This document shows, one piece after another, positions 8,821 through 34,642 of a stretch of DNA of 64,000 nt. Origin of the DNA: an uncultured Methanoregula sp. (GTDB taxonomy: Archaea > Halobacteriota > Methanomicrobia > Methanomicrobiales > Methanospirillaceae). The notes under the pieces are model-generated. The model was not told the DNA's origin. It saw nothing but the letters and a program-made list of their open reading frames with translations, and did not search any database. Where the stretch lies: NCBI GenBank assembly GCA_963662735.1, contig OY759744.1, positions 970,153 to 1,034,152 on the forward strand. Reading direction: 5' to 3'. The stretch's first letter is position 1, and the number at the start of each line of letters is the position of its first letter. The position numbers and the translations under genes were made by a program.

Positions 8821-9047
8821 ATCGGGTACCCCGGTGCGTTTCCGACCTTCCTGAAGATCCTTTTCTTTTTTGCCACGACACCCGCGGCTGAATCCTGGAT
8901 CCGGCCGTAGCCCCGCTGTGGACACAAATCTCACGGGCACCGGCGGATCTTTTAGCATCATTTTTTCGTGGCGGGAAATATTTTCCCCGCCATTCGGCAA
9001 AAAACATATCACAAATAATATTATCCTGCCGCCCAGTATCCGATCAT

Positions 9048-19582: not shown

Positions 19583-20086
19583 CTATCCCAGTGCTGCTAC
19601 GGTGTCTGCCCAGGTCTCGACCCTGCTCCGGATCGCTTCATCGGAATACGAGGTAAGGGTCACCTGATCCCGGCTGAAGTTGACGAAGTAGAGCTCGCCG
19701 TTGGCATCGTGGCATTTTAGGGTGGCGGTGAACTTCTCGTTGTCGCGGTCACGGATCGGTGTCCCGCCGATCGTGGTCGCGATCTCCGTGTCTGCAACAA
19801 TGCGGTTGGCGACACTGGTGAACGCTGCGATGGTAGGCGTCCTGACCGTGATGAGGGCGATGGTCTTTGCATCGGAGTCCTGGTAGAAGATCCGTGCGGT
19901 GTAGCCCTGTTTGGTGCGTTCTACCGGGGGGTGGTTCACTCCCTGTGCATTGTAGGAAACGCACTGGAAGGGGTTGTTCGCAATGACGCCCTGGACAAGG
20001 TTGTCGAAGGCAGTCACGTCTGCGAGCGGGGCCGCGAGTTTGCGGACCGCGCTCTTCGTGGTGTTGCTTGTCGTAAAGTCTGCCAT
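19583..20086 (-). CDS. hypothetical 167-aa protein, no recognisable family
   Basis: I use ATG 20086 (MADFTTSNTTKSAVRKL...) rather than the 20278 start in the ORF track. Composition is balanced and not low-complexity. Confidence 0.55.
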   Translation of the reverse strand: MADFTTSNTTKSAVRKLAAPLADVTAFDNLVQGVIANNPFQCVSYNAQGVNHPPVERTKQGYTARIFYQDSDAKTIALITVRTPTIAAFTSVANRIVADTEIATTIGGTPIRDRDNEKFTATLKCHDANGELYFVNFSRDQVTLTSYSDEAIRSRVETWADTVAALG

Positions 20087-20205
20087 TTCTGGTCTCTCCT
20101 TTCTTGTCTGCCGGGGAGTTCTCCGAACTTCCCGGTGGTTTGTCGCGGGGCGCCCTTTGACATACCAATGTTGGCACTCATAGGGTATATCCCAAAAAAG
20201 GAGAA

Positions 20206-20904
20206 TTAAACCGGGGCTGGTACGGGCCGCGGTGGGGAAAAGGGGCAGGGAGCGCTTCGCGCCTGCTGTACCGGGCATGCCGGTGCAGCAGTTTTTGGAA
20301 CGGGCGCAGGAACAGCGTCCGTTTTCATGATCTTCTGCATAGTTACAACGTTCCCGATACCCCAGTCATAGACCCGGTAGCGGAGCAGGCCCTTCTCGCG
20401 GGAGAAGATCCAGAACTGGAGGTTGTCGGCATGCGACTTCCAGTGCGACTCCATCTGCCGGATCTCCTGTTCGTAGAGTTCCGCAACATTGGCAGCGTTC
20501 CGGACGGGATCCCGGGGCAGGACAACCCGGACAAGGAGGGAGTCCTGGTGATTCCAGGCATCGAGGTTGAAGGGGAACCCGTCTTCATGGTTCCGGAAGA
20601 CCCGGTAGCCTTCCGCTTCCAGGATGCGTACCGCTTCTGGCAGGCACCGGGGGTTATGCATCCCGGCGGGTTTTTTCGTCTTCGACCTCACGGGAAGTTT
20701 TCGCTCTTTTTTCCCCGAGGGGTGGTTCTTTTTGCTTTTCACGGTGTGGCGGGACGGATTCACCTTCCCGCTTGCCGCCGGTGCCCGGCCTGATGCCGTG
20801 CCGGCGGTTCTGGTAATCCTGGTGTTCGTGTGCATACTATCATTGCTGGTTCTCTCCGACAACGGTACTTGTACCCAGGCAGCGTTTCTGTTCGTTTCCG
20901 GCAT
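20206..20904 (-). CDS. hypothetical protein with a basic disordered N-terminal part and a C-terminal domain of nuclease-fold-like topology
   Basis: The C-terminal block LPEAVRILEAEGYRVFRNHEDGFPFNLDAWNHQDSLLVRVVL resembles the alpha-beta-beta-beta core of Hjc/PD-(D/E)xK folds but lacks the E-x-K. The start is uncertain: the ORF track start 20931 is TTG, and in-frame ATGs occur at 20904, 20835 and 20661. Confidence 0.45.
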   Translation of the reverse strand: MPETNRNAAWVQVPLSERTSNDSMHTNTRITRTAGTASGRAPAASGKVNPSRHTVKSKKNHPSGKKERKLPVRSKTKKPAGMHNPRCLPEAVRILEAEGYRVFRNHEDGFPFNLDAWNHQDSLLVRVVLPRDPVRNAANVAELYEQEIRQMESHWKSHADNLQFWIFSREKGLLRYRVYDWGIGNVVTMQKIMKTDAVPAPVPKTAAPACPVQQARSAPCPFSPPRPVPAPV

Positions 20905-21359
20905 GAAGCTCCCTGTGCAGTCACATCCCAAAGATTCCGTTTACGGGATAGTCTGTTGTGCGATACGTCCCACAGTGTCTTTCCGGGTTTCATCCGTGAA
21001 ACACTGTGTTATTCTAAAAAAAGAATCATTTTTGGATTTAAATATAGAGGATGGGAGGGGTTAGAGGAATGGGTGGGATGGGTTGGAGATCGGGATTGTT
21101 GAAGGAGAGTGTGTGAGCCGTCCGAGATCAGGATTCGGTTCCTGGGGAATCAACGATTCCTGCTCCTGATTAATTCCCCGTTTACTTACACGACCAAATC
21201 CATTCTAAGTATATACAATGTATACACACAGCATTTTGTGCCAAATGCGTAAACTCCGATTAACTTAGAACCGTGATTTTATGATAGATGAACCAAGTTT
21301 TCGTTGTAAGTGTTTTGGCGAATCAAGAACGGCAGGAGAACTTGTGTGAGAACGTCAGC

Positions 21360-22451
21360 TTAGCTCACTTTAAGTAATCCCGATTCTGAAATTATGGAAT
21401 ACATATCATCGAGTAATGTCGCGGAAACATTTGTATCCACGCAATCTGCGCATAATGCACTACGATTATAATGTACGAGTAATCTTATAAAAAAAGGGGC
21501 TTGGCAATGTTTTTTAGGAATATTTCTCTTACATGAGTTTAATAAAATTCTTCTAAAATACTGTAATCTATTTTCACAGTTTAGATCTGGCATAGATAAG
21601 GCCATGATTCTGAGTTTTGCATCGATTGAAGAATATTTAAACCGTATTGCCAATTTCTCGATATTATCTCCTTTTGGTAACCGGACATTAAATTGAGATC
21701 TCAAAAAAGTGATAGGATCCTCAAGATAGATTGTAAAATTAAATATTGAGTCAATCCCGAGATCGTTATCCTGTAGTTCCAAATTGTTACCATATTTATC
21801 TTTAATAATTTCTAAAATTCTCGATTTAATTGCTTCAATTGTCAATTCGGGATTTATCTCTACAACAAAGAAGTCATGTTCTTCGTCGATCGGCTCCATG
21901 CGTTTTTGGTAAACGTAAATAACTTTTTTATGCTCAGCGTAATATTCACCCGTATCTTCAATTATTTTTAAAAATTTAAATGAAATTTTAGGAAATTCTC
22001 GTTCCAATTTATCATGGGAACTTTTTAGCGCCATATATCCGCATACTTTTTTGAACCCGCCTAGCACTTCCAATTTGAATGGTGATAACCGAAGGATATC
22101 TCTCGTCTCTTTTCCGGTCGTAATTGCGTCTGTCAGAAGGATATTACTTTTATCAAAATTAAACACAGAGAAAAAATGATGTTCCATCGAATGCTGGCCT
22201 CGATGGCTGAGTGGTTTAATGGAAATAATAGTGCGCATTCTCTTAATGCTGTTTAGATAAGGATGGAATAGGTTCAATCCTTTGCGTTCGACAGCGATTA
22301 TGTTCGTTTCTTTATCCTGAACAATTTCTTTAATAAAAAAAGGGAAGAGCTCGTTGTCAATCGCATTTGCTAATCTTAGTGATTCTTCATCCGAAATGTA
22401 CCCCATTTGATTTTTTATTGTTATTGAGTCTTCAGTTGAGGATTTATCCAT
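21360..22451 (-). CDS. PRTase-like (phosphoribosyltransferase-fold) domain protein with an uncharacterised Cys-containing C-terminal domain
   Basis: 363 aa in AT-rich DNA. It has a NIIAVERKG segment and a PRPP-loop-like motif SNILLTDAITTGKETRDIL. The C-terminal ~200 aa are unassigned, with Cys clusters SCKRNIPKKHC and LCADC. Confidence 0.6.
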   Translation of the reverse strand: MDKSSTEDSITIKNQMGYISDEESLRLANAIDNELFPFFIKEIVQDKETNIIAVERKGLNLFHPYLNSIKRMRTIISIKPLSHRGQHSMEHHFFSVFNFDKSNILLTDAITTGKETRDILRLSPFKLEVLGGFKKVCGYMALKSSHDKLEREFPKISFKFLKIIEDTGEYYAEHKKVIYVYQKRMEPIDEEHDFFVVEINPELTIEAIKSRILEIIKDKYGNNLELQDNDLGIDSIFNFTIYLEDPITFLRSQFNVRLPKGDNIEKLAIRFKYSSIDAKLRIMALSMPDLNCENRLQYFRRILLNSCKRNIPKKHCQAPFFIRLLVHYNRSALCADCVDTNVSATLLDDMYSIISESGLLKVS

Positions 22452-22522
22452 CTCTTTATATTTTACGTATTTTTGATTTGTATCTTCCGAATACTGATAA
22501 ATAATTAAAACATAAGTTATAC

Positions 22523-22537
22523 GTTCAAATTTTGAAC
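22523..22537. promoter_or_regulatory. inverted repeat GTTCAAA-t-TTTGAAC in the divergent intergenic region
   Basis: 7-bp arms with a 1-nt spacer, between the PRTase-like gene and the wHTH gene. Candidate operator. Confidence 0.25.
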
Positions 22538-22740
22538 CTAATGCCCAAATAATAAACTATATAACCAGAAAAGAAGACATTATGGATAGACCTACTTTCA
22601 TGGTCGTGTTCCCATGAAGCCATGGGAGCAATCAGTAAAAAGTGGGACTATGACAACAACCTTCTCTCCAACTGAACCCCACAGTTTATGAGAAATCCGT
22701 ATGCGGGTTAGGTTAAGGAGACGTTGATAGATTGACATCT

Positions 22741-23025
22741 ATGTTAAAAAATCCCTTGTCCAACGAGTTAAAAGTGGCAACCGAGATATTCGGATGCCAA
22801 GAGCGGGGAGAGAAGGTCTGGCTTGGTAAACTCCAGGCAAGCTTAAACGGAGAGATCAGTAAGAACACGGTCTCTGCGGCACTGGATACCCTGTTTGACT
22901 GGGGCATTATCAAGGCAGAGTACGGCGAGACGGAAAATGGAAGGGCGGGACGATTGCTGATGATCAGCAACGAGTCAACCCCCATGATTAAAGAACTCTA
23001 CGAAAAATACTGGAAAAACCGATAA
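22741..23025 (+). CDS. small winged-helix DNA-binding protein
   Basis: 94 aa. ...ISKNTVSAALDTLFDWGIIKAEYGETENGRAGRLLMIS resembles a recognition helix plus beta-wing. ATG 22741 is used because the ORF track start 22732 is TTG. Confidence 0.55.
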   Translation: MLKNPLSNELKVATEIFGCQERGEKVWLGKLQASLNGEISKNTVSAALDTLFDWGIIKAEYGETENGRAGRLLMISNESTPMIKELYEKYWKNR

Positions 23026-23035
23026 GCAGTGAGAT

Positions 23036-23818
23036 ATGGATACCTCTATTTTTCCCAAGTATGAGTACAAGGGGATTACCCATCCCCAGAAGACCATTCT
23101 TGTCGCGGTTTCCAAATATGCGGAGAGCTTCCTGCGGTTTGCTCCGCGGAAGATCCAGAATTTTCCCTCCCACGGGGTTGATCATTCTGTCAGTATCATC
23201 CGGATGATCAATTCCTTTCCTGAAGAATGGGGGATCAAACTTACGAGAACCGAGCGGTTCATTCTCTATGCAGCAGCATGGCTCCATGACATCGGCTGCG
23301 TGAAGGACCGGACCCCGCACAACAAGATCTCGGTTGACATCCTGATGAACAGCGAGAGCATCTGCGATTCCTTCAACCGCCTGGACAGCGACCTGCTCTT
23401 CATCCTTGAGTATGTCATCGAGAGCCACTCCTCATCGTATGACATCAGCACGGTCCCAGCGAAACGGGGAGCAGTACGGGTCCGTCTCATCTGTGCGATC
23501 TTCCGGCTGCTCGATGCGTGCGAGATCACGAACTTCAAGTGTCCTGCCTCGGTATATGCCGAGATTAAGGACGACCTGAAAACCCCGGATGGATCGGTTG
23601 ATACTGATGCTATCGAGTTCTGGGAAGGGCACATGAACATCAAAGATCTCGGGTTCTTCAAACCGGAGATTGTTGTTCTTGTCAATCATGCCCGTAAGAG
23701 CAAGAAGATCACGGACCGGCTGGTCAAGGAAATTGAATCTGTGCAGGAGATCTTTCGCGAGAATGGGATGGATGTGCCGGTTGTAAAGGTCAAGGCGAGA
23801 ACAGCTGGGATTGATTGA
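23036..23818 (+). CDS. HD-domain metal-dependent phosphohydrolase
   Basis: HGVDHSVSII ... AAAWLHDIGCV ... ESHSS ... FRLLDACE, an H..H / HD / H / D pattern. Starts 10 nt after the wHTH gene. Confidence 0.7.
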   Translation: MDTSIFPKYEYKGITHPQKTILVAVSKYAESFLRFAPRKIQNFPSHGVDHSVSIIRMINSFPEEWGIKLTRTERFILYAAAWLHDIGCVKDRTPHNKISVDILMNSESICDSFNRLDSDLLFILEYVIESHSSSYDISTVPAKRGAVRVRLICAIFRLLDACEITNFKCPASVYAEIKDDLKTPDGSVDTDAIEFWEGHMNIKDLGFFKPEIVVLVNHARKSKKITDRLVKEIESVQEIFRENGMDVPVVKVKARTAGID

Positions 23819-23841
23819 AAGAAAATTGGTAATTCAGAAAA

Positions 23842-24933
23842 TTACTCCAAATAAAACTGATCAATTAACGGAATATCTTTCTTTTTTAGATCAAAAAAGC
23901 TCTTGTATTGGTCATCAAGGTTATCATAATGGGACAATATCCAATCAACCAGACTATCCTGATCAATAAGTTTGATATTCTTTTTTCCCGAGGCCTCCGC
24001 CTCTTCAATGGCAGGTCTAGTAAATGTACCTATAGTAACAATTGCTCCGTGTTCATCCGTTCCAAGGGCACCCCGTAACTGAAGCACAACAGTATTACCA
24101 ATAGGTTTCGGAACCTGCTTTACTTGGACCTTTAAATCAAGGGTGACCAATTCAGTCGAAAGATACCCGTCTATATCAATTCCTTTATCGCCGACATATT
24201 GCCTGTTTGCTGCTTCGAAACCACTTATACTGAGTAAATGGGAGGTAAATTCTTCAAACTGTCTGGGGTTCATGCTCAACAAACGCTCTATGATACGACT
24301 ATGAATATCTTGTCCGGTTACTTGTGTTATTGGATTCTGCAGATTTGCCGAAGATTTCTCTGATATCAAGGATTCAACTTCGATCTTATGTTCTTCGAGA
24401 GATATAACTGTCAACCAGACAAGTGAGTTTTTCAGTTTAGTGGAAAGTTCCGAACGGGGTATTGATCGTACCCACTCAACATTCCGCCGGTTCGTATATG
24501 GGCATTTGTCACCCCAGTTTTCCTTCCACTGGTAATCACCGCTGATCCGACCGATGATCACTGATCGTTTCGAAGGATTGGGTAAAAGGAAGATATCGCC
24601 ATGTTTGATAGTTCGGACAAAACGGAGGATTTCACCACACTGGATCCCGACCTGGCTGTTGGTGACATTCTCATAGATGCGTTTATGGAGCACTTTCAGC
24701 TTTTTCAGTGCATCCTCTTCAGACGCTGATGATAGCAGCCAGCTGAGGTCCCCGAGTTCATTCCAACCAATGGCGATGAACTTTTTGGAATATCCTTCAT
24801 CGACATATTTTCCCCCCTCGCCAAGCCTGATGCCCCAGTATGCGGTCATGTGGATCAGAGGGGTATTGGTTAAAGGAGGATATAAGAGGATATCAAATCC
24901 ATTTTTTTGTGTATTTAGAATAGTTATACTCAT
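23842..24933 (-). CDS. Mrr-family (type IV) restriction endonuclease with an unassigned N-terminal domain
   Basis: The C-terminal FEEFTSHLL...GDKGIDIDGY...LKVQVKQ...LRGAL...GAIVTIGTFTRPAIEEA matches the Mrr catalytic core. The N-terminal ~170 aa carry a FIAIGWNELGDLS motif. Alternative start at ATG 24849. Confidence 0.75.
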   Translation of the reverse strand: MSITILNTQKNGFDILLYPPLTNTPLIHMTAYWGIRLGEGGKYVDEGYSKKFIAIGWNELGDLSWLLSSASEEDALKKLKVLHKRIYENVTNSQVGIQCGEILRFVRTIKHGDIFLLPNPSKRSVIIGRISGDYQWKENWGDKCPYTNRRNVEWVRSIPRSELSTKLKNSLVWLTVISLEEHKIEVESLISEKSSANLQNPITQVTGQDIHSRIIERLLSMNPRQFEEFTSHLLSISGFEAANRQYVGDKGIDIDGYLSTELVTLDLKVQVKQVPKPIGNTVVLQLRGALGTDEHGAIVTIGTFTRPAIEEAEASGKKNIKLIDQDSLVDWILSHYDNLDDQYKSFFDLKKKDIPLIDQFYLE

Positions 24934-25504
24934 CTAATAATTTCAAAATGGGTTTTTTAGGATTAATTACTTCAGTTTTTAATTGTTCAACTTGTTGTTT
25001 TGAAATCCGACTAAATTTTAAGTATTTTCCTGCGGGATCGTTTGAATAATGACAATGATACGCTCTCGCAATTTTATCATCCCAAATCGGGAAAAATGAT
25101 GGAGCTAATAGATGCAATGTCTTTGCAACAGATACCGGACTTCTCGATCCTTTTTTTGTGCCCTCCTCAATCTGAAGGGCAACCAAAAAATCCAGAAAAA
25201 TTAAACGCAACAATTTCTCATCTGATTCAGACAGGGTAGTTATCTCTCTATTTCTCAGGATAGTAAGTTTGTCAAAATGTTTAACGAGACATTGTTCTAA
25301 ATCATCAAAATTAAAAAACCCATAACGGTAGAAAGCTTGGTTCCAGGTTAAAAGCAAAACTCCCAAACCATCGGTCATATCGGTGAAATTTCCCCAATTT
25401 TCTTTGATCAATTTTGTTGCAACTTTATACATTGCATCTCGTTTTTCGTGTTTTTCAAATTCCTCACAACCCTTTTGGAATTCATCGAATTGAATTTTCA
25501 GCAT
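24893..25504 (-). CDS. hypothetical 203-aa protein
   Basis: AT-rich helical protein, family not recognised. Its ATG lies 6 nt downstream of the stop of an hsdS remnant. Confidence 0.55.
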   Translation of the reverse strand: MLKIQFDEFQKGCEEFEKHEKRDAMYKVATKLIKENWGNFTDMTDGLGVLLLTWNQAFYRYGFFNFDDLEQCLVKHFDKLTILRNREITTLSESDEKLLRLIFLDFLVALQIEEGTKKGSRSPVSVAKTLHLLAPSFFPIWDDKIARAYHCHYSNDPAGKYLKFSRISKQQVEQLKTEVINPKKPILKLLDEYNYSKYTKKWI

Positions 25505-25510
25505 AAACGA

Positions 25511-25663
25511 TCAAACCCCACCCGCCACCTGCTTGACCACCGCCCCCGCCAGCCGCGCCTGAACACCCGCCCTCTCTTTGAACTGTGATTCGAGGGCATC
25601 GCAAATACGGCGATCTTGTGTGCGCGAAAAGCTGGGTTCCAAATGAAGTTTCAGATGATGGAT
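25511..25663 (-). pseudogene. hsdS 3-prime remnant 1
   Basis: Hand translation gives IHHLKLHLEPSFSRTQDRRICDALESQFKERAGVQARLAGAVVKQVAGGV*. The intact HsdS C-terminus reads ...PHLNVGDVKNFQVPLPPLAEQHRIVAKVDALMALCDALESCLKERAGVQSKFATAVVKQIGSM*. The remnant is a GC-rich patch in AT-rich surroundings. Confidence 0.8.
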
Positions 25664-26072
25664 TTACTGACATTCCAAAGCTCTATCAATGAGATAATAA
25701 TATATTATTAATATGCCGAGCTCGACATTTCAGTTCATTATGAAGAATCCCCCAACAATTTGCTTAGGTGGGGGAATACTGCTGTCACTCGCTGGGAATC
25801 CTCTCGGGGGTGCGGCACTTATAGTGATCGGTGTGTTCCTTGCAATCGCGTAACTGACATAAATCCGAACCGTCGCTATTCACAAGGATATCGATTCTGT
25901 ACCTCTGGGATTAAATATCCGCCGAGCACTTTTTTTTACATCCTTCTCAACCTTCCCAGTATCGAACCGAAGGATGTTTTGATGGTATACCTCATCTGTG
26001 CGGAGAATTACGAGCCAGAACCAAGAATCATAATGAAGGGTTTTATAATTAATTATTTCCATTTAGATACTT

Positions 26073-26390
26073 ATGATCATTGGAACTGAAATGCCGACAG
26101 CAGAAAGGCAAACACTTGAAATAAAAGATGGGGAATTCATTCTCAAGAAAATCCCGCGAAGCGACACTGGAGGCGGGAGACTCAATATTGATAAAGTAAA
26201 TGAAAAATGGCATATACAACTTCATACTCCGAAGGGCGAAATTTATGATTTTATTCCGCTTCAATTCGACGATACAAAAATCAACGATGCAGTTTACATA
26301 AAAACAGCGCTAGAAAAGGAGGCCGGGGATGGGGGCGCTGACAAATTATTGATAATTGGTGGGGAACAAATGTGGAAAAAGCAAGAATAA
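26073..26390 (+). CDS. hypothetical 105-aa protein
   Basis: The only sizeable ORF between the two hsdS remnants, and on the strand opposite to its neighbours. No recognisable motifs. Confidence 0.35.
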   Translation: MIIGTEMPTAERQTLEIKDGEFILKKIPRSDTGGGRLNIDKVNEKWHIQLHTPKGEIYDFIPLQFDDTKINDAVYIKTALEKEAGDGGADKLLIIGGEQMWKKQE

Positions 26391-26417
26391 ACCAAAATTT
26401 TGATTAGTGCTTTAATA

Positions 26418-26565
26418 TCATCCCATCACCTGCTTCACCACCGTCCCTGCACTCCCGCCCTTGCTTGGAGTTGTGATTCAAGGGCTCGAAGAAACCTGAG
26501 GTTTCTTCTCAAGGCACAGAGCGCCACATCGCACAACGCCAATCTGCGTGTAATGAGGGCAACGA
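26418..26565 (-). pseudogene. hsdS 3-prime remnant 2 (frameshifted, interrupted by a hairpin)
   Basis: Reads ..LALCD-[hairpin insert]-ALESQLQARAGVQG, then a -1 shift, then TVVKQVMG*. A perfect 9-bp stem gaagaaacc-tga-ggtttcttc lies at 26488-26508. Confidence 0.7.
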
Positions 26566-26590
26566 AAACATGCGTATTGAAAAAGGGGGG

Positions 26591-27247
26591 TTACTGTTCT
26601 GCATCTTTCAGTCGTTCAAACTCCAAGCCGGGAATCTTGATTTTACTTGCAAAAGGTAATAAAAATAGCCCTAAAACAACTCCAATTAATGCAATTTGTT
26701 CCGTTTTTAAAACAAGGAAACCGGTAAGATTCAAGATTAAAATAACAAGGCTACCGAATCCGAGAATCCAACATACTAACTGAAAATTTTTAATTGCATT
26801 TTCCTTTTCATTTAACAACTCAAAAAGCGTTTTCTGACGGGCACTATTCTTTAAAATTGAAATTTTTGGGATTTGATCGGATGAGAAAAAATCATATGAA
26901 TCAGCATCATCAGGATCTTGTTTTATTCGAGTTATTTCCAACGGTGTGTCTTTACTTTCGTTAGGATAAACAACAAATAATGGAATATCTTGATTTTTCA
27001 ATAATGACGCATATCTTTTTAATTGAAATTCCGCATCTTTTTCACGTTTTCGGTCTTTTCGACTTTTTATTTCAAATAATGCAATGGGTTTGTTGAGGAG
27101 TTTATCGATGATAGCTAAATCCACACGATAATGATGCCCATTGGACTCAATTGGCCATTCAAGGGCGATTGAATCCTCGGAGACCCCTTGATGTTTTAGG
27201 GTTTCAATTAAAATATTAACAAGTTCTCTTTCGTGAAATTCTCTCAT
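26591..27247 (-). CDS. PD-(D/E)xK (HsdR-N-terminal-like) nuclease-fold domain fused to two C-terminal transmembrane helices
   Basis: The N-terminal HHYRVDLAIIDKLLNKPIALFEIKS gives a D...E-x-K arrangement. The C-terminal helices are WILGFGSLVILILNLTGFLVL and IALIGVVLGLFLLPFA. Its ATG lies 1 nt after the hsdS stop. Confidence 0.65.
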   Translation of the reverse strand: MREFHERELVNILIETLKHQGVSEDSIALEWPIESNGHHYRVDLAIIDKLLNKPIALFEIKSRKDRKREKDAEFQLKRYASLLKNQDIPLFVVYPNESKDTPLEITRIKQDPDDADSYDFFSSDQIPKISILKNSARQKTLFELLNEKENAIKNFQLVCWILGFGSLVILILNLTGFLVLKTEQIALIGVVLGLFLLPFASKIKIPGLEFERLKDAEQ

Positions 27248-27248
27248 A

Positions 27249-28877
27249 TTACATCGATCCTATTTGTTTTACTACGGCAGTAGCGAATTTACTTTGCACT
27301 CCCGCTCGCTCCTTCAGACATGATTCCAAGGCATCGCACAACGCCATCAGCGCATCAACCTTCGCGACGATGCGGTGTTGTTCGGCGAGCGGGGGGAGAG
27401 GGACTTGAAAATTTTTCACATCTCCCACATTTAAATGAGGTGATGAAGTTCCGCCAGTCTGCTCTTTTACTTTCATTTGCACAAATGGGGAATTTAATAA
27501 AATTAAAATATATTTTGGAATTGCTTTTTTTGGATTGACTCTTAGGAGCATCATCCGTTGGCCTAAACACGTTTTCAATCCTTTCGGGATCATACAAGCA
27601 ATCCCTAAAATTCCTCCCTCTCTACTAAACAAAATATCATTTTCACGAGGCTCTAATCTTGAAATTCTTTCAAGATATGTATCATGCGAAACATACCTTA
27701 CTTCAGTTAGATCCAAATAACCCGGTTTAAAATTTGTCGTACGTAAACAAATCTCCCCATTTTGAGTCCATTTTGGTGTGGAGTGCGGACAATCAACAAT
27801 GGTCTCACACACCCCGTTAATGTTATCCCATTGCCAAGATTGTGGAATATTTAAACGATATCCAATATCTGTAGAATCCTCTTTGACAAAAGAAACAAGA
27901 GGGATGCTTGATCCCTCATCTTTCGGCTTTAGTATTAACCGTCCTTGGATCGCCATTTGTAAAATTGTCTCCCGAAGCATCCTGGCATTCTCCGGGCAGT
28001 CAAAGATCAACTCAAAAGCATCACACACCTGCGCCCATTGCCGTTCAAATTCCTCCGGACTCTCTGAACTCTGCAATGCTATGAGACTCGCAGTCCCAAG
28101 CCGGAGGCTGACTGCCCGCTCCTGCAGTTGTTGAAATTCGATTTCATCACACAACGCCATCAGCGCTTTAATTTTAGCAATAATGCGATGCTGTTCAGCT
28201 AGAGGGGCAATTGGAATAAGGGTATTATTAGCAAAACTAAGATTTATCCCCCCCTGGGCAGCGCCTTTAAAATTTTCGAGTATTCGTGTTTGACCGATTT
28301 CAGAATACAGGTAATAAAAAGCAAATTGAGGAGTAATAAAATCATAAAAACGGCAAATAAAAACATGCTCATTAATGCATGCTTCGGAGAATGGAAATCT
28401 GGAATCAACAAGAGAGACCTTACCGGTTGTTGCACCATCTTTTACAATGAGAAGATCTCCTGTCCGGATTTTTCCTTTTGTCATTTTTTGATAAAACTCA
28501 GGAGAAACGAATTTAATTGTACCAAATCTGAATCCCCCCCTTCCATCAAGATGCTCCCCACCTATACTAGGTATACCTGATTTGATCTCTCTTACTCCAC
28601 CTATTGGTCTCGAACCGGATTCTATAGATGATAAAACGTCAATTAAGGGCAATTGAATCCAGGATTTTGGGAGAATATGTGACTCATCCTCGGAAATATA
28701 CTGAAACTCCTTATGTAATGATGTCTCTATCATTTTTTTCGCGAACTCATCATTTGCATCTTGGGTACCAAGCCTTCCTGAAAAAGCTAAATCGAGGATT
28801 AGATTTCGTAGCTGGGCGATGCCCTCCGGGGCAGTGGCGAGCGTGGTGAACCGCTCGAATAGGAGATCGGTGCTCAT
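27249..28877 (-). CDS. hsdS: Type I restriction-modification specificity subunit HsdS
   Basis: 542 aa with two AT-rich target-recognition domains. These are separated by conserved coiled-coil repeats: central LAPLAEQHRIIAKIKALMALCDEIE and distal LPPLAEQHRIVAKVDALMALCDALE. Confidence 0.93.
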   Translation of the reverse strand: MSTDLLFERFTTLATAPEGIAQLRNLILDLAFSGRLGTQDANDEFAKKMIETSLHKEFQYISEDESHILPKSWIQLPLIDVLSSIESGSRPIGGVREIKSGIPSIGGEHLDGRGGFRFGTIKFVSPEFYQKMTKGKIRTGDLLIVKDGATTGKVSLVDSRFPFSEACINEHVFICRFYDFITPQFAFYYLYSEIGQTRILENFKGAAQGGINLSFANNTLIPIAPLAEQHRIIAKIKALMALCDEIEFQQLQERAVSLRLGTASLIALQSSESPEEFERQWAQVCDAFELIFDCPENARMLRETILQMAIQGRLILKPKDEGSSIPLVSFVKEDSTDIGYRLNIPQSWQWDNINGVCETIVDCPHSTPKWTQNGEICLRTTNFKPGYLDLTEVRYVSHDTYLERISRLEPRENDILFSREGGILGIACMIPKGLKTCLGQRMMLLRVNPKKAIPKYILILLNSPFVQMKVKEQTGGTSSPHLNVGDVKNFQVPLPPLAEQHRIVAKVDALMALCDALESCLKERAGVQSKFATAVVKQIGSM

Positions 28878-30331
28878 CGTGTATTCCTAGTAGGTGTCCC
28901 GAGCAATGCCATCAGTTCCTGCTTCAGCGCTTCACGGGCCATCTCTGCTTCGACCCTAACCCTCTCATACTCGCGGAGCAGTTCTTCAGGATCGCCTTGT
29001 TTGTCCGGCACAATGTTTGGGTTCTTTATGTCGAGGTTAAATCCGTTCGCAATAATCTGCTCTATCGACACCCGCCATGCATGCTCGTTCTCGGTGCGGT
29101 TCGTCCACCATGCCTTCTCAGGTTCGAACTCTGCTATCCGGATCGGCTTTGTCTTTGAGTACGACTTATAGCCCTCGGGATAGGTGTGTTCATAGTACCA
29201 GATTTCTTTTGTAGCCTTGCCTTTCTCGAAGAAGAGGAGGTTCGTTCTCGTTGGGGTATATGGGGCAAAGACATTTTTGGGCAATCGAATTATGGTATGG
29301 AGGTTGCATTCGGTCAGGAGTTTCTCCTTGATCCGGCTCTTCACACCCTCGCCAAAGAGCGTTCCGTCGGGGAGCACGATCGCGGCCCGGCCGCCATCTT
29401 TGAGGATGTGCATGATCAGGACAAGGAAGAGATCGGCCGTCTCCCGGGTCTGGTACATGGACGGGAAGTTGGTCTCGATCCCGTCCTCCTCCATGCCGCC
29501 GAACGGCGGGTTCGTCACGATCACATCTACCCGGTCCCGTGCCGAGTAATCCTTCAGCGGGCGGGCAAGGGTGTTGTCATGCTTGATCTGGATCGGGACA
29601 TCGATGCCGTGCAGCATCATGTTCGTGACGCAGAGCAGGTGCGGCATCGGCTTCTTCTCGACCCCGTGGATCGAGTTCCGGAGCAGTTCCTCGTCTTTCG
29701 GGTTCTTAACCGTTTTCCGGATATTCTCGATGGCACAGGCAAGGAACCCGCCGGTACCGCAGGCCGGGTCAAGGATCGACTCGCCAAGCTTCGGGTCCAC
29801 CTGATCCACCATGAACTGCGTCACGGCCCGGGGTGTGTAATACTCCCCGGCATTGCCCGCACTCTGGAGGTCTTTTAAGATCTTCTCGTAGATCTCCCCG
29901 AACAGGTGACGATCCTCGGTCTTGTTGAAATCGATCTCATTGATCTTGTTCGCAACCTGGCGGATCAGCGTCCCGTTCTTCATGTAGTTGTACGAGTCCT
30001 CGAAGACCTTGCGGATCAGGATCCCGGAACCATTGAGGCCCGCTTCCGCAGGGAGTTCTTTGAGGGTCGGGAAGAGGTCGGCATCAATGAACTTCAGGAG
30101 CACGTCGCCTGTGATCCCCTCGGCATTGCCCGCCCAGTTCCGCCACCGGAGCCGTTCCGGCATCGGCGACCGGTACCCCTTCTTCATCAGCTCGTACTCT
30201 TTTTCCTTGTCATCGAAGATCTTCAAAAAAAGCATCCAGCCGAGTTGGCTGATCCGCTGGGCGTCGCCATCGACCCCTGCATCCTTCCGCATGATGTCCT
30301 GGATCGTCTTGATCGTGGTTCCGACTGCCAT
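28874..30331 (-). CDS. hsdM: Type I R-M DNA methyltransferase subunit HsdM (N6-adenine)
   Basis: HsdM N-terminal domain, SAM motif DPACGTGGFL and catalytic NPPFGG. Overlaps the hsdS start by 4 nt. Confidence 0.95.
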   Translation of the reverse strand: MAVGTTIKTIQDIMRKDAGVDGDAQRISQLGWMLFLKIFDDKEKEYELMKKGYRSPMPERLRWRNWAGNAEGITGDVLLKFIDADLFPTLKELPAEAGLNGSGILIRKVFEDSYNYMKNGTLIRQVANKINEIDFNKTEDRHLFGEIYEKILKDLQSAGNAGEYYTPRAVTQFMVDQVDPKLGESILDPACGTGGFLACAIENIRKTVKNPKDEELLRNSIHGVEKKPMPHLLCVTNMMLHGIDVPIQIKHDNTLARPLKDYSARDRVDVIVTNPPFGGMEEDGIETNFPSMYQTRETADLFLVLIMHILKDGGRAAIVLPDGTLFGEGVKSRIKEKLLTECNLHTIIRLPKNVFAPYTPTRTNLLFFEKGKATKEIWYYEHTYPEGYKSYSKTKPIRIAEFEPEKAWWTNRTENEHAWRVSIEQIIANGFNLDIKNPNIVPDKQGDPEELLREYERVRVEAEMAREALKQELMALLGTPTRNTR

Positions 30332-30361
30332 AAAAAATTCAGCTCCCTCGTATTCGTGCCG

Positions 30362-32665
30362 TCAGCACTCGGCGGTATAGAGACACCGTTCGAGCCGGCG
30401 TATTGCTTCCATATAGTTGGCGCTCCCGCCAAAAATAGTGTTCACAATCTCCATCGGTGTACCGAAGGTTGTGAACGGATCCACCTTCAGCACTTCCATG
30501 TTCTCAATATCGCCGATCCCGCCATCGGAGTATTTCGACAGGAGGGCATCCAGTACCTTCCGTGCCTTGTCGCCGTACTTCGTGAAGTAATCCGCTTTCC
30601 GGACCTTTGCTGCCCGTTCCCTGCGGGACAGGGGTGGCTGGCCGAAGACCACGTGGCAGATCAGGTCGAAGGGATCGTAGTCCTTCCCCACCTGCTCCTG
30701 GAGCGCCTCGAAGAGTACGCCTTGCTCCTCCAGTTCCTCCAGGATCACCGTCTTCTGCTCCGCCTTCGTCCACGAACTCATGAACGCATTCAGCGTAGCA
30801 TACTGCCGGGTCACATTCTTCTTCGTATAATCTTCCAGCGACTCCGTGATCAGCTTCCCGTCGGCCGCCATGTACTGGACGCGCTCGGCAACCACAGAAA
30901 CCGGCACATCGTTCACCACGTACCGCCTCATCCCGTCTCCCGGTGGCTTGGGTGCGGGAGGATCAATCGGATCGGTCGGGTCGTACTGGCTCCCGTCAAG
31001 CGGTTCGCCGTCAAAGTCCGGGTCGGCAAAGAGCTCGCTCACCTTCCGGAAGTCCATGATCGTGAAGAAGAACTTGTTGTAATCCTCGTTGATCCGGGTC
31101 CCCCGACCGATGATCTGCTTGAATTCGGACATCGATTCGATCCGTTTGTCGATCACGATCAGCTTGCAGGTCTGGGCATCCACGCCGGTCCCCATCAGCT
31201 TCGAGGTGGTTGCAATGACGGGATACTTGGAATCCGGCATGATGAAGTTGTCCAGTTCTGCCTTCCCGTCCGGGCTGTCGCCCGTGATCCGGACAACATA
31301 CCTGCCGTTCTCCTTCACCAGATCCGCGTTCTCGTTCACGAGACAACTCCGCATTCGTTCGGCGTGATCGATATTCTCGCAGAAGACGATCGTCTTGTCG
31401 TACCTGCCGGTGTTCTTGAGGAAATCCGAGATCTTCCGGGCCACGAGTTCCGTACGGTGCTCTAGGACAAGGCTCCGGTCGAAGTCCTTCTGGTTGAAGA
31501 TACGGTCCTCGATCTCCACGCCGTACTTGTCCTTCTGCCCCCGGGTTGGTCGCCATCCCTGCAAATCCTTGTCCAGATCGATCCGGTACACCCGGTACGG
31601 GGCAAGGAACCCGTCTTCGATCCCCTGCTTCAGTGAATATTCATACACGGGCTTCCCGAAATAATGGACACTGGAGACGTACTTCGTCTCCTTCGGGGTC
31701 GCTGTCAGCCCGATGTGGGTAGCCGATGAGAAATAGTCGAGGATTTCCCGCCACATCGCATCGTCCGCAGCACTTCCCCGGTGGCATTCGTCGACAATGA
31801 TCAGATCAAAGAAGTCCCGGGAGAACTGCTTGTAGATGTTGCGCTCCTCCTCGTTGCCGGATACTGCCTGGTAGAGTGAGAGATAAATCTCGTAACTCTT
31901 GTCCACCTGCCGGTTCGCGATCTTCGTCATTGCCGACCCGAACGGCTTGAAATCGTTCGTCTTGGTCTGGTCGACAAGGATATTCCGGTCCGCAAGGAAC
32001 AGGATACGCTTCTTGGTGCCGGACTTCCAGAGCCGCCAGATGATCTGGAATGCCGTATAGGTCTTGCCGGTCCCGGTGGCCATCACGAGCAGGACCCGGT
32101 CCTTTCCGTTCGCAATCGCCTCGATTGTCCGGTTGATCGCGTTTATCTGGTAATACCGGGGCATCTTCCGGATGTCGTCGATATAGTAACTCTGGGTGAT
32201 GATCTGCTCTTTTTTGTCGTCGATCCCTTTCCATTTCCGGTACCGGGTCCAGAGGTCAGTGGGGCGGGGAAATTCGGTAAGTGAGAGTTCCCTCTCCATG
32301 GGCTCATAATTGCCGGAACGGTCGTGCAGCAAAAACCCGTCACCATTGGAACTGAACACAAACGGGATATCCATCATTTCTGCATAGGCAAGAGCCTGCT
32401 GCATCCCGGCTCCCACGATATGCGTGTTGTCCTTTGCCTCGATCACGGCAATCGGCAGATTCTGTTTATAGTAAAGAATATAGTCCGCCCTTCGCGGCTT
32501 GGCGCGGCTCACGGAGTTGCCATTCACAAGAACCCGGCCATCGGTGACGTTCACCTCTTCCCGGATCTGGTGATGGATGTCCCAGCCGGCCTGGGTCAGT
32601 GCGGGTGTAATGAATTTGGTGCAGATGTCCCGCTCCGTCAATGCCTTCTTGTCCAGTCCAACCAT
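30362..32665 (-). CDS. hsdR: Type I restriction enzyme R subunit HsdR (EcoEI-like C-terminal domain)
   Basis: N-terminal PD-(D/E)xK (ADYILYY...IAVIEAKD), helicase motifs (MATGTGKT, DECH), and an EcoEI_R_C-like C-terminus. The ORF track start 32692 is TTG, and I prefer ATG 32665 (MVGLDKKALTERDICTKFITPAL). Confidence 0.93.
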   Translation of the reverse strand: MVGLDKKALTERDICTKFITPALTQAGWDIHHQIREEVNVTDGRVLVNGNSVSRAKPRRADYILYYKQNLPIAVIEAKDNTHIVGAGMQQALAYAEMMDIPFVFSSNGDGFLLHDRSGNYEPMERELSLTEFPRPTDLWTRYRKWKGIDDKKEQIITQSYYIDDIRKMPRYYQINAINRTIEAIANGKDRVLLVMATGTGKTYTAFQIIWRLWKSGTKKRILFLADRNILVDQTKTNDFKPFGSAMTKIANRQVDKSYEIYLSLYQAVSGNEEERNIYKQFSRDFFDLIIVDECHRGSAADDAMWREILDYFSSATHIGLTATPKETKYVSSVHYFGKPVYEYSLKQGIEDGFLAPYRVYRIDLDKDLQGWRPTRGQKDKYGVEIEDRIFNQKDFDRSLVLEHRTELVARKISDFLKNTGRYDKTIVFCENIDHAERMRSCLVNENADLVKENGRYVVRITGDSPDGKAELDNFIMPDSKYPVIATTSKLMGTGVDAQTCKLIVIDKRIESMSEFKQIIGRGTRINEDYNKFFFTIMDFRKVSELFADPDFDGEPLDGSQYDPTDPIDPPAPKPPGDGMRRYVVNDVPVSVVAERVQYMAADGKLITESLEDYTKKNVTRQYATLNAFMSSWTKAEQKTVILEELEEQGVLFEALQEQVGKDYDPFDLICHVVFGQPPLSRRERAAKVRKADYFTKYGDKARKVLDALLSKYSDGGIGDIENMEVLKVDPFTTFGTPMEIVNTIFGGSANYMEAIRRLERCLYTAEC

Positions 32666-32710
32666 CCCGTGATTCTTCTGTATCTCTGACAATCCGCTAA
32701 TACCTTTCTA

Positions 32711-32718
32711 TTTAAATA
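32711..32718 (-). promoter_or_regulatory. candidate TATA box for the hsdRMS operon
   Basis: tttaaata lies 46-53 nt upstream of ATG 32665. Confidence 0.3.
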
Positions 32719-32780
32719 AAAATCCGCCATGAAACTCAACCATTCTATTCCACCGCACCAAAGCAACCCTTCCCATTTTC

Positions 32781-33202
32781 CAGCCAGACCCTGCTTCAAA
32801 AATTCCAGTCGCGATCACGATCCCGATCAAAAACCGTTCGCAGATCAATCGAACCTTGATTTGAAATTTTCAATCAAACCTTGATTAAAAAATTTCAACC
32901 AGACTTTGATTGAAAATTTTTCAGCGAACCTTGATTGAAAAACCGCACTCGCGATCCCGCGTCCGTCGTGAACTGGAAAAATAAACGTATGCACAAGTGG
33001 TTAACTTTTCACAACCAGACCTTGATTGAAAATTTTCAGGCAGACTTTGATTTTTATTTTTCAATCAAGCTTTGATTTCAAAATGTTAATCGCGATCATG
33101 ATCGCGATTGAAAAACCGATCCGGATCAATCAAACCCTGATTTGAAATTTTCAGTTAAACCTTACTTGAAAAATTTTAACCGGACTTTGATGACAAAAAG
33201 TT
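32781..33202. repeat. array of eleven degenerate ~25-bp AT-rich units (CA-N5-6-A[CT][CT]TTGATTGAAAATTTT)
   Basis: Units by eye: 32781-32805, then four contiguous at 32841-32944, three at 33010-33087, and three at 33127-33202. No ORF covers this region. Confidence 0.85.
33088..33109. repeat. perfect 22-bp palindrome AATCGCGATCATGATCGCGATT
   Basis: Its reverse complement is identical. Related CGCGATC elements occur at 32808-32830 and 32948-32961, each between blocks of the 25-bp units. Confidence 0.85.
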
Positions 33203-33394
33203 AACCAGATCAACAACAGGAATCACCCAATCATCCTTATTCCGGGCGGATCTCTGTTACATCAGCCACCCACTTGAACCGCCGGTAACTACTCCTGCTC
33301 CCTTCCTTAACTGAAATGTTTATTGCCCCCACCGGTTACTATGTGGTATGGGGTGGAGGTTCCGGTGCACGGTCACCGGGGGGAGCAAAACCGC

Positions 33395-34642
33395 ATGGAC
33401 CGGCTGACGCTGCGCAATGTCCTTCTGTATTTTACGGTCGACATCGGCACGTTCGTCTCGATCTGGTTCTTTGATCTCACAACGGCACTTATCACCTATA
33501 CCCTGACCAAGTCCCCGGTGTCCCTCGGCATCGTGGGGTTTGCCCAGAATATCCCCTTCCTCCTGTTCAGCCTGTACGGGGGCGTCATCGCAGACCGGCA
33601 TGACCGGCGGCGGGTAGTACTGTTCTTCAACTCCTGCCTGTTTCTCGTCACCCTCACCGCGCTCGCCCTCCAGCTGCTGCATCTCCTGACCTTTCCGCTC
33701 ATCATCGTCCTCTCGCTCACCTACGGGACCATCTGGGCCCTTAACCTCCCCTCGATGCTCGCGCTCGTAAAAGACATTGTTACCGATGAGCACGAATTCG
33801 CCCGGGTGATGGGTGCCGCCGCCTCCAACGGGAAGATCGGGCAGATGGGTGCCGCATCGGTATTCGGGTACATCTATGCCACATTCACGGCAGCCGGAGT
33901 CTTTGTTGCGGGACTCTGCTTCAACGCGATCGCGTTCGTTGCCATACTGCTGGTGAAAACGAAAGCGAGGATTGTGCAAAAAACCACAAGCCCCCTCCGC
34001 GAGCAGATCACCACGGGGTTACGGTACGTGACTGTCCATCCCCCGCTCCTGATGGTGATCATGCTGGTAACCGTCGTCAGCACGGTCTTTGCCTTTGTCC
34101 TGTTCCAGTTTCCGGTGATCGATGCGGATTTTCTCCACGGCAATAAACTATTCTTAAGCGCCCTGTACTTCGCCGGCGGGTTGGGCGGGCTTACCTCCGG
34201 GCTTTACCTGGTCAGGCGCAAATCCCCGCGGGGAATTCTCTGGTTCATGGTGTTCTGCACCGTACTGAGCGGGGTCTCGGTCATTGTGCTCGGGAACTCC
34301 CGGGATATTTTCCTTTCAGCGATCTGCGCTGCAGGGATCGATTTCGCATTCATCGGCACGATGGGGGTATCGAACACGGTCCTCCAGCTGCTCACCGACG
34401 ACGAACGGAGAGGCAGGGTTCTTGGCATCAACACTATGGGGGCCTGGGGGATCATGGCGGTCATGATCGTTGTTCTCGGGGCCATTGCAGGCGCGTGGGG
34501 AATCACCTTCGCCCTGACCCTTGCCGGGCTGCTCTGTTTTGCCGCGGCAGGGATGTACCTCGTGCTGCTCCCGTGGCAGCGGCCCCGGTTGAGGGCTCTC
34601 TCTGCTGAACGGGGGATCGGCCCGGCCGATGAATTGATCTGA
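33395..34642 (+). CDS. MFS transporter
   Basis: About 415 aa with 12 predicted hydrophobic helices and a GGVIADRHDRRR loop motif between TM2 and TM3. ATG 33395 is used. Confidence 0.8.
   Translation: MDRLTLRNVLLYFTVDIGTFVSIWFFDLTTALITYTLTKSPVSLGIVGFAQNIPFLLFSLYGGVIADRHDRRRVVLFFNSCLFLVTLTALALQLLHLLTFPLIIVLSLTYGTIWALNLPSMLALVKDIVTDEHEFARVMGAAASNGKIGQMGAASVFGYIYATFTAAGVFVAGLCFNAIAFVAILLVKTKARIVQKTTSPLREQITTGLRYVTVHPPLLMVIMLVTVVSTVFAFVLFQFPVIDADFLHGNKLFLSALYFAGGLGGLTSGLYLVRRKSPRGILWFMVFCTVLSGVSVIVLGNSRDIFLSAICAAGIDFAFIGTMGVSNTVLQLLTDDERRGRVLGINTMGAWGIMAVMIVVLGAIAGAWGITFALTLAGLLCFAAAGMYLVLLPWQRPRLRALSAERGIGPADELI

Follow-up and report, generated by a model that had tools for sequence, protein, structure and literature searches.

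How do copies of the end of one gene come to lie between other genes? The question is raised by a stretch of 64,000 nucleotides (nt) from an uncultured Methanoregula sp. (contig OY759744.1), called the window below, which carries a Type I restriction operon (hsdR, hsdM and hsdS) on its minus strand. The conserved 3′ end of the specificity gene hsdS, here called the tail, is present once in the intact gene and twice more behind it, as two remnants that stand between genes unrelated to hsdS (the cargo). We regard it as probable, with some reserve, that the remnants are recombination scars, that is, displaced 3′ ends of earlier hsdS alleles left by homologous recombination at the conserved tail. 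Coordinates are positions in the window, and tail positions (approximately 1–141) are counted 5′ to 3′ along the conserved hsdS 3′ segment. Labels such as L001 and L162 denote related genome or metagenome loci compared with the window; the comparison set comprises about 180 loci, with 80 genome and 80 metagenome loci fetched by HsdM similarity.

Copies of the hsdS 3′ end in the window

The last 61 amino acids (aa) of HsdS were searched against the whole window by tblastn. Remnant 1 is matched at 25526–25606 (70% identity over 27 aa, E 1e-8) and remnant 2 at 26438–26590 (E 1e-4), with a second, frame-shifted piece ending in ..VVKQV; the next-best match in the window, at the level of chance, has an E value of 0.76. 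The search confirms the three minus-strand copies reported in a preliminary description of the locus: the intact gene, remnant 2 and remnant 1. A nucleotide hidden Markov model (HMM) built from seven archaeal tails also finds remnant 1 (nhmmer, E 5e-5). The central conserved region of hsdS itself is recovered by tblastn (28089–28247, E 2e-12), by nhmmer (positions 2–98, E 1e-12) and in a repeat search (family D1, 75% identity). Elsewhere in the variable island behind hsdS (21298–27247), tblastn gives no HsdS match beyond the tails, and there is no recognition-domain sequence beside the scars.

Both remnants are fragments and not genes, with unrelated sequence upstream and no recognition domain. 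Remnant 1 is 83–88% identical in nucleotides to scars in L002 and L170; the scar type of tail end reads ..GRLAGAVVKQVAGG up to the stop codon. Remnant 2 has the same position and junction as the scar of L162 and is orthologous to it. The preliminary limits needed changing: the segment 25607–25663, which had been counted into remnant 1, has no hsdS homology, and remnant 2 begins right after the stop codon of the 218-aa gene (cargo A), so that it spans 26418–26589. The remnants are GC-rich, as had been described (0.635 for remnant 1 and 0.535 for remnant 2, with 0.51 for the intact tail and 0.33 for the cargo genes). The two junctions are also as first read. The TAA of hsdS is followed after 1 nt by the ATG of cargo A, and the TGA of remnant 1 after 6 nt (TCGTTT) by the ATG of cargo B. 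When the three copies are aligned as DNA, the scores are weak (local scores 31–32, near the 99th percentile of the window background) because the intact tail has an imported 3′ half; the match is significant at the protein level. Another sample yielded an independent assembly (L001, the sole result of an exact HsdM look-up) with the identical structure.

In the alignment, remnant 2 carries a 42-nt insert and a 14-nt deletion. The insert is seen in no other sampled tail or scar. It contains the hairpin noted earlier, GAAGAAACC-TCA-GGTTTCTTC, which has an exact 9-bp stem and a 3-nt loop and is present as a single copy in the window. The insert may be a product of repair or a very small palindromic insertion. 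Remnant 2 also has an inverted match of 27 nt at 20955–20981, judged to be chance, as 10-mer seeds are expected many times in 7.5 kb. After the Mrr-type gene of the window no scar was found, though L170 and L084 carry one there.

Arrays, cargo and mosaic tails in related loci

Tails followed by varied cargo and further tail copies recur in related loci. The nucleotide profile, run over 166 loci, gives no tail match in the orientation opposite to hsdS. A strict count was made with stricter thresholds and only for loci with at least 1 kb downstream of hsdS. Behind hsdS, 8 of 17 archaeal-type loci have extra tails, compared with 3 of 78 bacterial-type loci (Fisher p 2.5e-5), and all 23 of these tails are on the hsdS strand (binomial p 2e-7). 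As a control, each locus was searched with its own tail, and extra downstream copies were found in 15 of 103 loci. Nearly all extra tails reach the stop codon, and their 5′ ends are cut variably, at positions 1 to 117; some scars, among them the third of L005 and remnant 3 of L170, are 3′-truncated or contain stop codons. Duplication of a homology segment predicts this shape, complete at the 3′ end and variable at the 5′ end.

Arrays of one to six scars occur in Methanoperedens, Methanosarcina and Methanoregula loci, with three scars in Methanoperedens L005, five or six in the Methanosarcinaceae locus L011, three in L170 (a structure found in six assemblies of this type) and two to four in Methanosarcina L020, depending on method and threshold. 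Same-direction cassettes with a separating repeat are seen in L005, L011, L170 and the window; bacterial examples (L121 and L116) are rare. The cargo between scars in the relatives comprises toxin–antitoxin pairs (MazE-PIN, DUF2683-ParE and Gp49-type), nucleotidyltransferases, a Bro-N protein, an 857-aa HEAT-repeat protein, and DUF3644, Mrr-like, RhuM and AbiEii proteins. Cargo on the opposite strand also exists (Fic, wHTH, an S49 protease and, in the window, the 105-aa open reading frame (ORF) at 26073–26390), a caveat to the co-transcription first suggested. A scan of viral contigs for two tail DNA patterns gave no match, hence no sign of a viral vector. A search of representative proteins with a 50-aa tail is uninformative on scars, its best 150 matches all being HsdS-sized (300–681 aa).

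Some arrays repeat more than the tail. In L011 (13155–13420, 14690–14764 and 16478–16555) and L012 (5730–6000), both Methanosarcinaceae, the repeat extends about 100 nt past the hsdS stop codon. In the post-stop element of L011, a T-run is flanked by an inverted repeat (ATCTGCGGTT...AACCGCAGAT). Conservation of a recombination site past the stop codon was rejected as a general feature, since the downstream sequence of L012 and L020 differs from that of L011; the sequence repeated past the stop is non-conserved and species-specific. Such a species-specific extent would be the result of duplicating whatever is homologous.

Downstream gene order is variable and not fixed, as a comparison at one chromosomal site common to the window, L162 and L083 makes plain. 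In L083, hsdS is followed by the flank without cargo. In L162, a cargo A homologue (55% identity) overlaps the hsdS stop codon, a scar follows 10 nt later and then a Fic gene, which replaces the entire window island except the cargo A copy. The window has a 6-kb island. L002 and L082 have in common the wHTH gene beyond their scars (87% nucleotide identity) and differ in cargo and target-recognition domains. A search for the window cargo in the first 80 loci found almost nothing; the cargo is not fixed.

The tails themselves are mosaic. Over 72 nt of the 5′ part, 2 positions distinguish the scar of L162 from the intact tail of that locus, whereas their 3′ halves are of unrelated types: a low-GC ‘SKF’ end in the intact gene (imported) and a GC-rich end in the scar (native and displaced). 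The window has the same layout, and in both loci the 3′ end is duplicated at the two junctions, with the imported copy completing the gene. Alignment places tail breakpoints near position 85 (L162), near 112 (L083) and near 45–50 (several loci). Such variable breakpoints fit homologous exchange and not a fixed crossover site. Every scar in Methanoregula-type loci has the GC-rich end, as do the intact tails of L083 and L084. The SKF-type end always precedes cargo A (window, L162 and L164–L166). As the window and L162 have tail end and cargo A in common but not the second recognition domain, a crossover separated them. In L164–L166, a 76-nt piece of hsdS tail ends approximately 3 nt before the ATG of the cargo A homologue, and there is no hsd gene within 10 kb upstream (the contigs end about 100 nt downstream). 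The cargo A homologue of L164 (9923–10591; likewise in L165 and L166) lies at the end of an island with SIR2, DUF1016/YhcG and unnamed large proteins.

Whole units are shared between loci. The block of remnant, cargo B and Mrr-type gene is 77% identical over 1770 nt between the window and L170, from tail position ~47, with the same spacing of scar and cargo B. The Mrr gene plus scar is common to L170 and L084, a ParE-type toxin–antitoxin pair to L004 and L005, and a nucleotidyltransferase gene to L005 and L019. L004 looks like L019 with the second recognition domain replaced by a new domain, tail and the 857-aa gene; its scar and the intact tail of L019 are 94% identical. In a Methanoperedenaceae locus, a piece of the hsdR–hsdM spacer region recurs downstream of hsdS between two scars (L004 15974–16058 against L019 9702–9786; 78% over 85 nt), so other non-coding parts of the operon are also copied into the array. 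Overall, the scars derive from hsdS, lie on its strand and keep its 3′ end whole, and the cargo that they enclose varies at a common chromosomal site. The idea put forward earlier, that the hsdS tail is an insertion hotspot subject to repeated recombination, holds in that the remnant similarity is significant, the gene order varies and the tails are mosaic; the strict push-down order that went with it is more doubtful.

Homologous recombination as the probable mechanism, and its alternatives

The C-terminal helix segment of approximately 140 nt would be the last homology between otherwise unrelated hsdS alleles in this Type I family, so that allele exchange by homologous recombination would resolve inside the tail. 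The incoming DNA would consist of a new tail end, a coupled gene and a tail-like piece on the far side, and it would recombine with the resident tail by a double crossover if linear or a single crossover if circular. The outcome would be an intact hsdS with a hybrid tail, new cargo directly behind it and a 5′-truncated tail copy beyond the cargo. Repeated rounds would build an array of tail, cargo, scar, cargo, scar. The scars could then act as portable homology with which cassettes move between loci, and both the intact tail and the scars seem to take up new cassettes. First-position cargo is presumably translationally coupled to hsdS. We infer both the order of events and host homologous recombination, rather than a dedicated recombinase, as the engine. 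The Pfam-annotated gene lists of L001, L162 and L167–L172 contain no recombinase (the wider genomes were not searched), and domain, PADLOC and family searches find no integrase-like protein in the window island.

Several observations weigh against this mechanism. Homologous recombination alone cannot produce the first junction of each kind between cargo and scar, which calls for an illegitimate step that the mechanism does not account for. The junctions are tight, with cargo stop codons 0–60 nt from the next scar and many scars beginning exactly at the PLPP C-run, which could point to a more precise process. Tail copies that are approximately 80–95% identical over about 100 nt are a poor substrate for classical homologous recombination. 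The hsdS-proximal scar of the window is more decayed than the distal one, and in L011 and L012 the intact tail is directly followed by a partial tail and downstream unit without cargo, a tandem duplication. The 3′ parts of scars are 0.84–0.89 identical between genomes, as against 0.63–0.79 at fourfold degenerate sites of hsdM, and no sampled intact tail resembles them as closely as they resemble each other. Given this likeness, the scars may propagate as a family or be under constraint. Finally, orphan scars occur far from any hsd gene, of which three contexts were examined (L178, L180 and L181).

The history of the scars bears on these points. Variable sites by codon position (8, 7 and 15) lean to the third position without being significant, which suggests that the scars may have diverged while still coding. 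A decayed 5′ variant (..VAL(I/V)TR.L.LCD..) is found in remnant 2 of the window, remnant 1 of L170, remnant 2 of L002 and small metagenome ORFs, so some scars were copied along with their neighbours and not formed in place. The pattern is consistent with a double crossover that takes its old 5′ part from the donor scar and its fresh 3′ part from the functional tail of the recipient, though a self-propagating repeat is conceivable as well. A word-indexed search with a scar-type 42-mer returned 51 clusters, all of proteins of 30–73 aa, and many scars are therefore called as small genes; the index seems length-biased, which makes the absence of full-length HsdS uninformative.

The orphan contexts indicate that scars outlive the operon. 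In L178 (9001–9180), a called gene of 59 aa consists of the first ~20 residues of HsdR (LNERNIYAKFITPAL) fused to the last ~30 of HsdS; it is the footprint of a deletion of nearly all of the hsd operon, which left a 321-aa gene between two scars. In L180, the scar and the wHTH gene are kept (89% aa identity to L002), and D5 primase, PIN and AAA_18 proteins stand where hsd genes would be expected. In L181, a lone scar (9029–9142) occupies the short gap separating two housekeeping genes, one for a pyridine-nucleotide disulfide oxidoreductase and one for CDC48, with no hsd gene or cargo within 9 kb upstream or 2.4 kb downstream (the contig end).

The tail, chiefly its GC-rich last ~95 nt, might alternatively be the true attachment site of a cassette-capture system whose recombinase is encoded elsewhere, similar to an integron or an Xer-dependent module. 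We consider this unlikely. It would explain one-orientation arrays of short one- or two-gene cassettes, often toxin–antitoxin, with a repeat of ~100–140 nt, as well as the tight junctions before and behind the cargo, a separate family of scar 3′ parts that are better conserved than neutral sites, and scars outside hsd loci. However, the gene lists named above show no recombinase gene within or beside the arrays, breakpoints and 5′ ends fall at many positions, the repeat past the stop codon differs between species, and the L178 orphan scar is accounted for as a deletion product. Hairpin potential does not exceed that of shuffled controls either: ten tails and scars folded as DNA in search of attC-like structure gave z values of −1.33 to +1.81. 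In a wider form, which we hold to be just as doubtful, the hsdS tail, chiefly the same GC-rich end, would be the recombination site of an archaeal cassette-capture platform, integron-like and built on a restriction gene. Specialised recombination, by a trans-acting recombinase or a homologous pathway devoted to the task, would insert, stack and exchange single-gene defence or toxin–antitoxin cassettes there. The scar family would then spread with its cassettes, even to sites that have lost the hsd operon.

The scars could also be retained because they are useful, the hsdS end supplying ribosome-binding or promoter signals for the next gene, and to this we give a similarly low probability. First-position genes start from an 8-nt overlap with the hsdS stop codon to 6 nt beyond it (window, L162, L082, L084 and L170), cargo B keeps its distance to the scar in the window and L170, and the cargo A homologue retains its tail piece where hsdS is missing from the 10 kb upstream. 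Purine-rich GGTGG/GGAGG-like runs are present in the GC-rich tail end and may play this role. Yet well-preserved scars also precede opposite-strand genes (Fic in L162; wHTH in L002, L082 and L180) or no gene at all (L181), and some scars are 3′-truncated or interrupted, as noted above for L005 and L170. Usefulness would account for the retention of scars and not for the origin of the duplication, and is compatible with homologous recombination in the tail.

Much less probable is that the remnants are leftovers of tandem or silent hsdS genes of the phase-variable kind, with decayed recognition domains and independently inserted cargo. Type I loci with several hsdS genes are known from the literature, and the internal direct repeats of hsdS favour unequal exchange. 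No scar has recognition-domain sequence beside it, however, cargo stop codons abut the scars, the copies are all direct and none inverted, the inspected gene lists include no recombinase, and the same cargo–scar junctions occur in different loci. Chance similarity or an assembly artefact, for which only the weak DNA-level match of the remnants to their own intact tail speaks, is rejected as next to impossible on the protein E values, the cross-genome nucleotide identity of scars, and the recurrence of the structure in L001 and in the six L170-type assemblies.

Island genes, comparable systems and meaning

The features of the locus are collected in the table. GC content drops to 0.32–0.45 from hsdS to about 21300, between host flanks of 0.586 and 0.588, and the cargo, at 0.33, is foreign. 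By its HSDR_N_2 match, which is weak, cargo A may be nuclease-like; only five homologues were found beyond the window copy. The family of cargo B has 1396 homologues, about 60% identical across bacteria and archaea and nearly always of 203 aa, and none of them has a Pfam, NCBIfam or PDB match. In L173 and L175–L177, a cargo B homologue is the last gene after a DUF87 ATPase and a protein of ~1280 aa, beside an integrase. Its gene neighbourhoods suggest that cargo B commonly accompanies defence-type or mobile modules. The Mrr_cat gene overlaps it by 41 nt, and the pair recurs in L167–L172. Defence-type domains linked to the window hsd genes are thus HSDR_N_2, Mrr_cat/PDC-S02 and HD-CE. The PADLOC candidate PDC-S02, which the Mrr-type gene matches, we take to be linked to the embedded-defence study of Payne et al.

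Features of the hsd locus and the island behind it (window positions)
Feature	Position	Strand	Remarks
hsdR, Type I restriction subunit	30362–32692	−	ORF; GC 0.56, host-like
hsdM, methyltransferase subunit	28874–30331	−	HsdM_N and N6_Mtase domains; GC 0.56, host-like
Intact hsdS, 542 aa	27249–28877	−	Pfam Methylase_S E 7e-24; PADLOC Specificity_I E 8e-91
hsdS central conserved region	28105–28201	−	Internal direct repeat of first ~98 nt of tail
Intact hsdS tail	27249–27389	−	LAEQHRIVAKVDALMALCDALESCLKERAGVQSKFATAVVKQIGSM to the stop codon; 3′ half of low-GC ‘SKF’ type, found with the 218-aa gene
Cargo A, 218 aa	26591–27247	−	Pfam HSDR_N_2, 27.2 bits, E 4.5e-6; two predicted membrane helices
Remnant 2 (scar)	26418–26589	−	Whole conserved tail from PLPP C-run; 5′ part decayed
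Insertion within remnant 2, 42 nt	26486–26527	−	Perfect 9-bp hairpin at 26488–26508
Inter-scar segment, ~0.8 kb	25607–26417		GC 0.40; 105-aa ORF inside; no family match
105-aa ORF	26073–26390	+	No family match; gene also called in L001
Remnant 1 (scar)	25511–25606	−	Tail positions ~47–141 (ICDALESQFKERAGVQARLAGAVVKQVAGGV to the stop codon)
Cargo B, 203 aa	24893–25504	−	Starts 6 nt after remnant 1; widespread unnamed family
DUF8426 + Mrr_cat restriction-endonuclease-like protein, 363 aa	23842–24933	−	Mrr_cat E 1.6e-18; PADLOC candidate PDC-S02 E 2e-64
Variable-island remainder	21298–23841		No scar detected; HD-CE protein and two unnamed ORFs
HD-CE protein	23036–23818	+	Domain match
97-aa ORF, unnamed	22732–23025	+	ORF list
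363-aa ORF, unnamed	21360–22451	−	ORF list
Conserved chromosomal flank	19583–21297		Common to L162, partly L083 (tblastx); GC back to ~0.58

The flank at 19583–21297 is the far edge of the variable region. HsdR is 93% identical in amino acids to that of L162, and its copy in L001 has the domains HSDR_N, ResIII, Helicase_C and EcoEI_R_C; HsdM is 89% identical to that of a Methanoregula metagenome-assembled genome. Both target-recognition domains of the window hsdS are low in GC. In the window, hsdM directly overlaps hsdS (28874 to 28877). Relatives (L002, 4537–6231; L162, 6535–8205; L083 and L084) carry a gene of ~560 aa with SLFN/AlbA_2 and HATPase_c_4 domains between the two, which marks a further place within the operon where insertions vary. 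The spacer that precedes hsdR (32700–33300) is AT-rich (GC 0.36–0.43) and contains short repeated ORF fragments of ‘FSIKV/FSIKL’ type on both strands; part of it is kept in L162 (2091–2295). An Rfam scan of 20500–33500 gave no match.

The arrays can be set beside several known systems. Integrons have an IntI-type tyrosine recombinase by the array, and the imperfect inverted repeats of their attC sites form hairpins when the DNA is single-stranded. The likeness lies in the one-directional arrays of short, often promoterless and often toxin–antitoxin cassettes with repeats of ~60–140 nt; here, however, there is no adjacent integrase, the repeat is a piece of a protein-coding gene without hairpin potential, and the crossover positions vary. 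Integrases that target tRNA, tmRNA or protein genes bring islands into the 3′ end of a gene and restore the gene. Here, too, an imported 3′ end keeps the target gene whole and the native end that it displaced is found at the far junction, most clearly in L162, but the insertions are single genes without an integrase, several are stacked and the duplicated segment varies in length. In Helicobacter, Lactococcus and Staphylococcus, hsdS recognition domains are exchanged by homologous recombination at conserved flanking repeats. Conserved hsdS segments are crossover points for swapping variable parts in those cases as in ours, although the known ones swap recognition domains only, without scars or cargo. 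Defence genes in general cluster in and around restriction–modification operons, and the route by which they enter is largely unknown.

The described system that comes nearest is the pneumococcal tvr locus (SpnIV), where circular intermediates are excised and reintegrated under the guidance of direct repeats within and at the end of hsdS (Kwun et al. 2018, PMC6265443). A toxin–antitoxin pair lies inside the rearranging segment, and the locus has its own recombinase, TvrR, although some exchange between the long terminal repeats takes place without it (PMC6265443). As in tvr, repeats in conserved hsdS sequence guide rearrangement here, and the mosaic tails have their breakpoints inside the repeat. 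The tvr system moves recognition-domain segments and serves phase variation, whereas the present repeats bracket non-hsdS cargo, a form of gene accretion; in contrast to tvr and ivr, there are no extra recognition domains near the scars and no recombinase at the loci whose gene lists were inspected. A preprint (Payne et al. 2024, doi 10.1101/2024.01.29.577857) documents defence genes within Type I restriction–modification, BREX, DISARM and Hma loci. It exploits this embedding for discovery and does not say by what mechanism the genes are inserted; its main text nowhere contains the word ‘recombination’. Unrelated defence candidates lie inside or against Type I operons in our loci also, and the scars add physical evidence of how and where genes enter. 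We found no description of hsdS 3′-end scars bracketing cargo in the literature searched.

As a physical record, the scars mark the conserved end of the specificity gene as the one defined point of entry for cargo in this Type I family. The archaeal enrichment may reflect recombination or DNA uptake in these organisms. To our knowledge, few defence or toxin systems have been tested in methanogens and methane-oxidising archaea; in both groups, cassette boundaries, and with them candidate defence and toxin genes, can be located by means of a short nucleotide profile for the hsdS tail. Turnover of restriction specificity could carry accessory genes along without mobile-element machinery, the displaced gene ends serving as portable homology.

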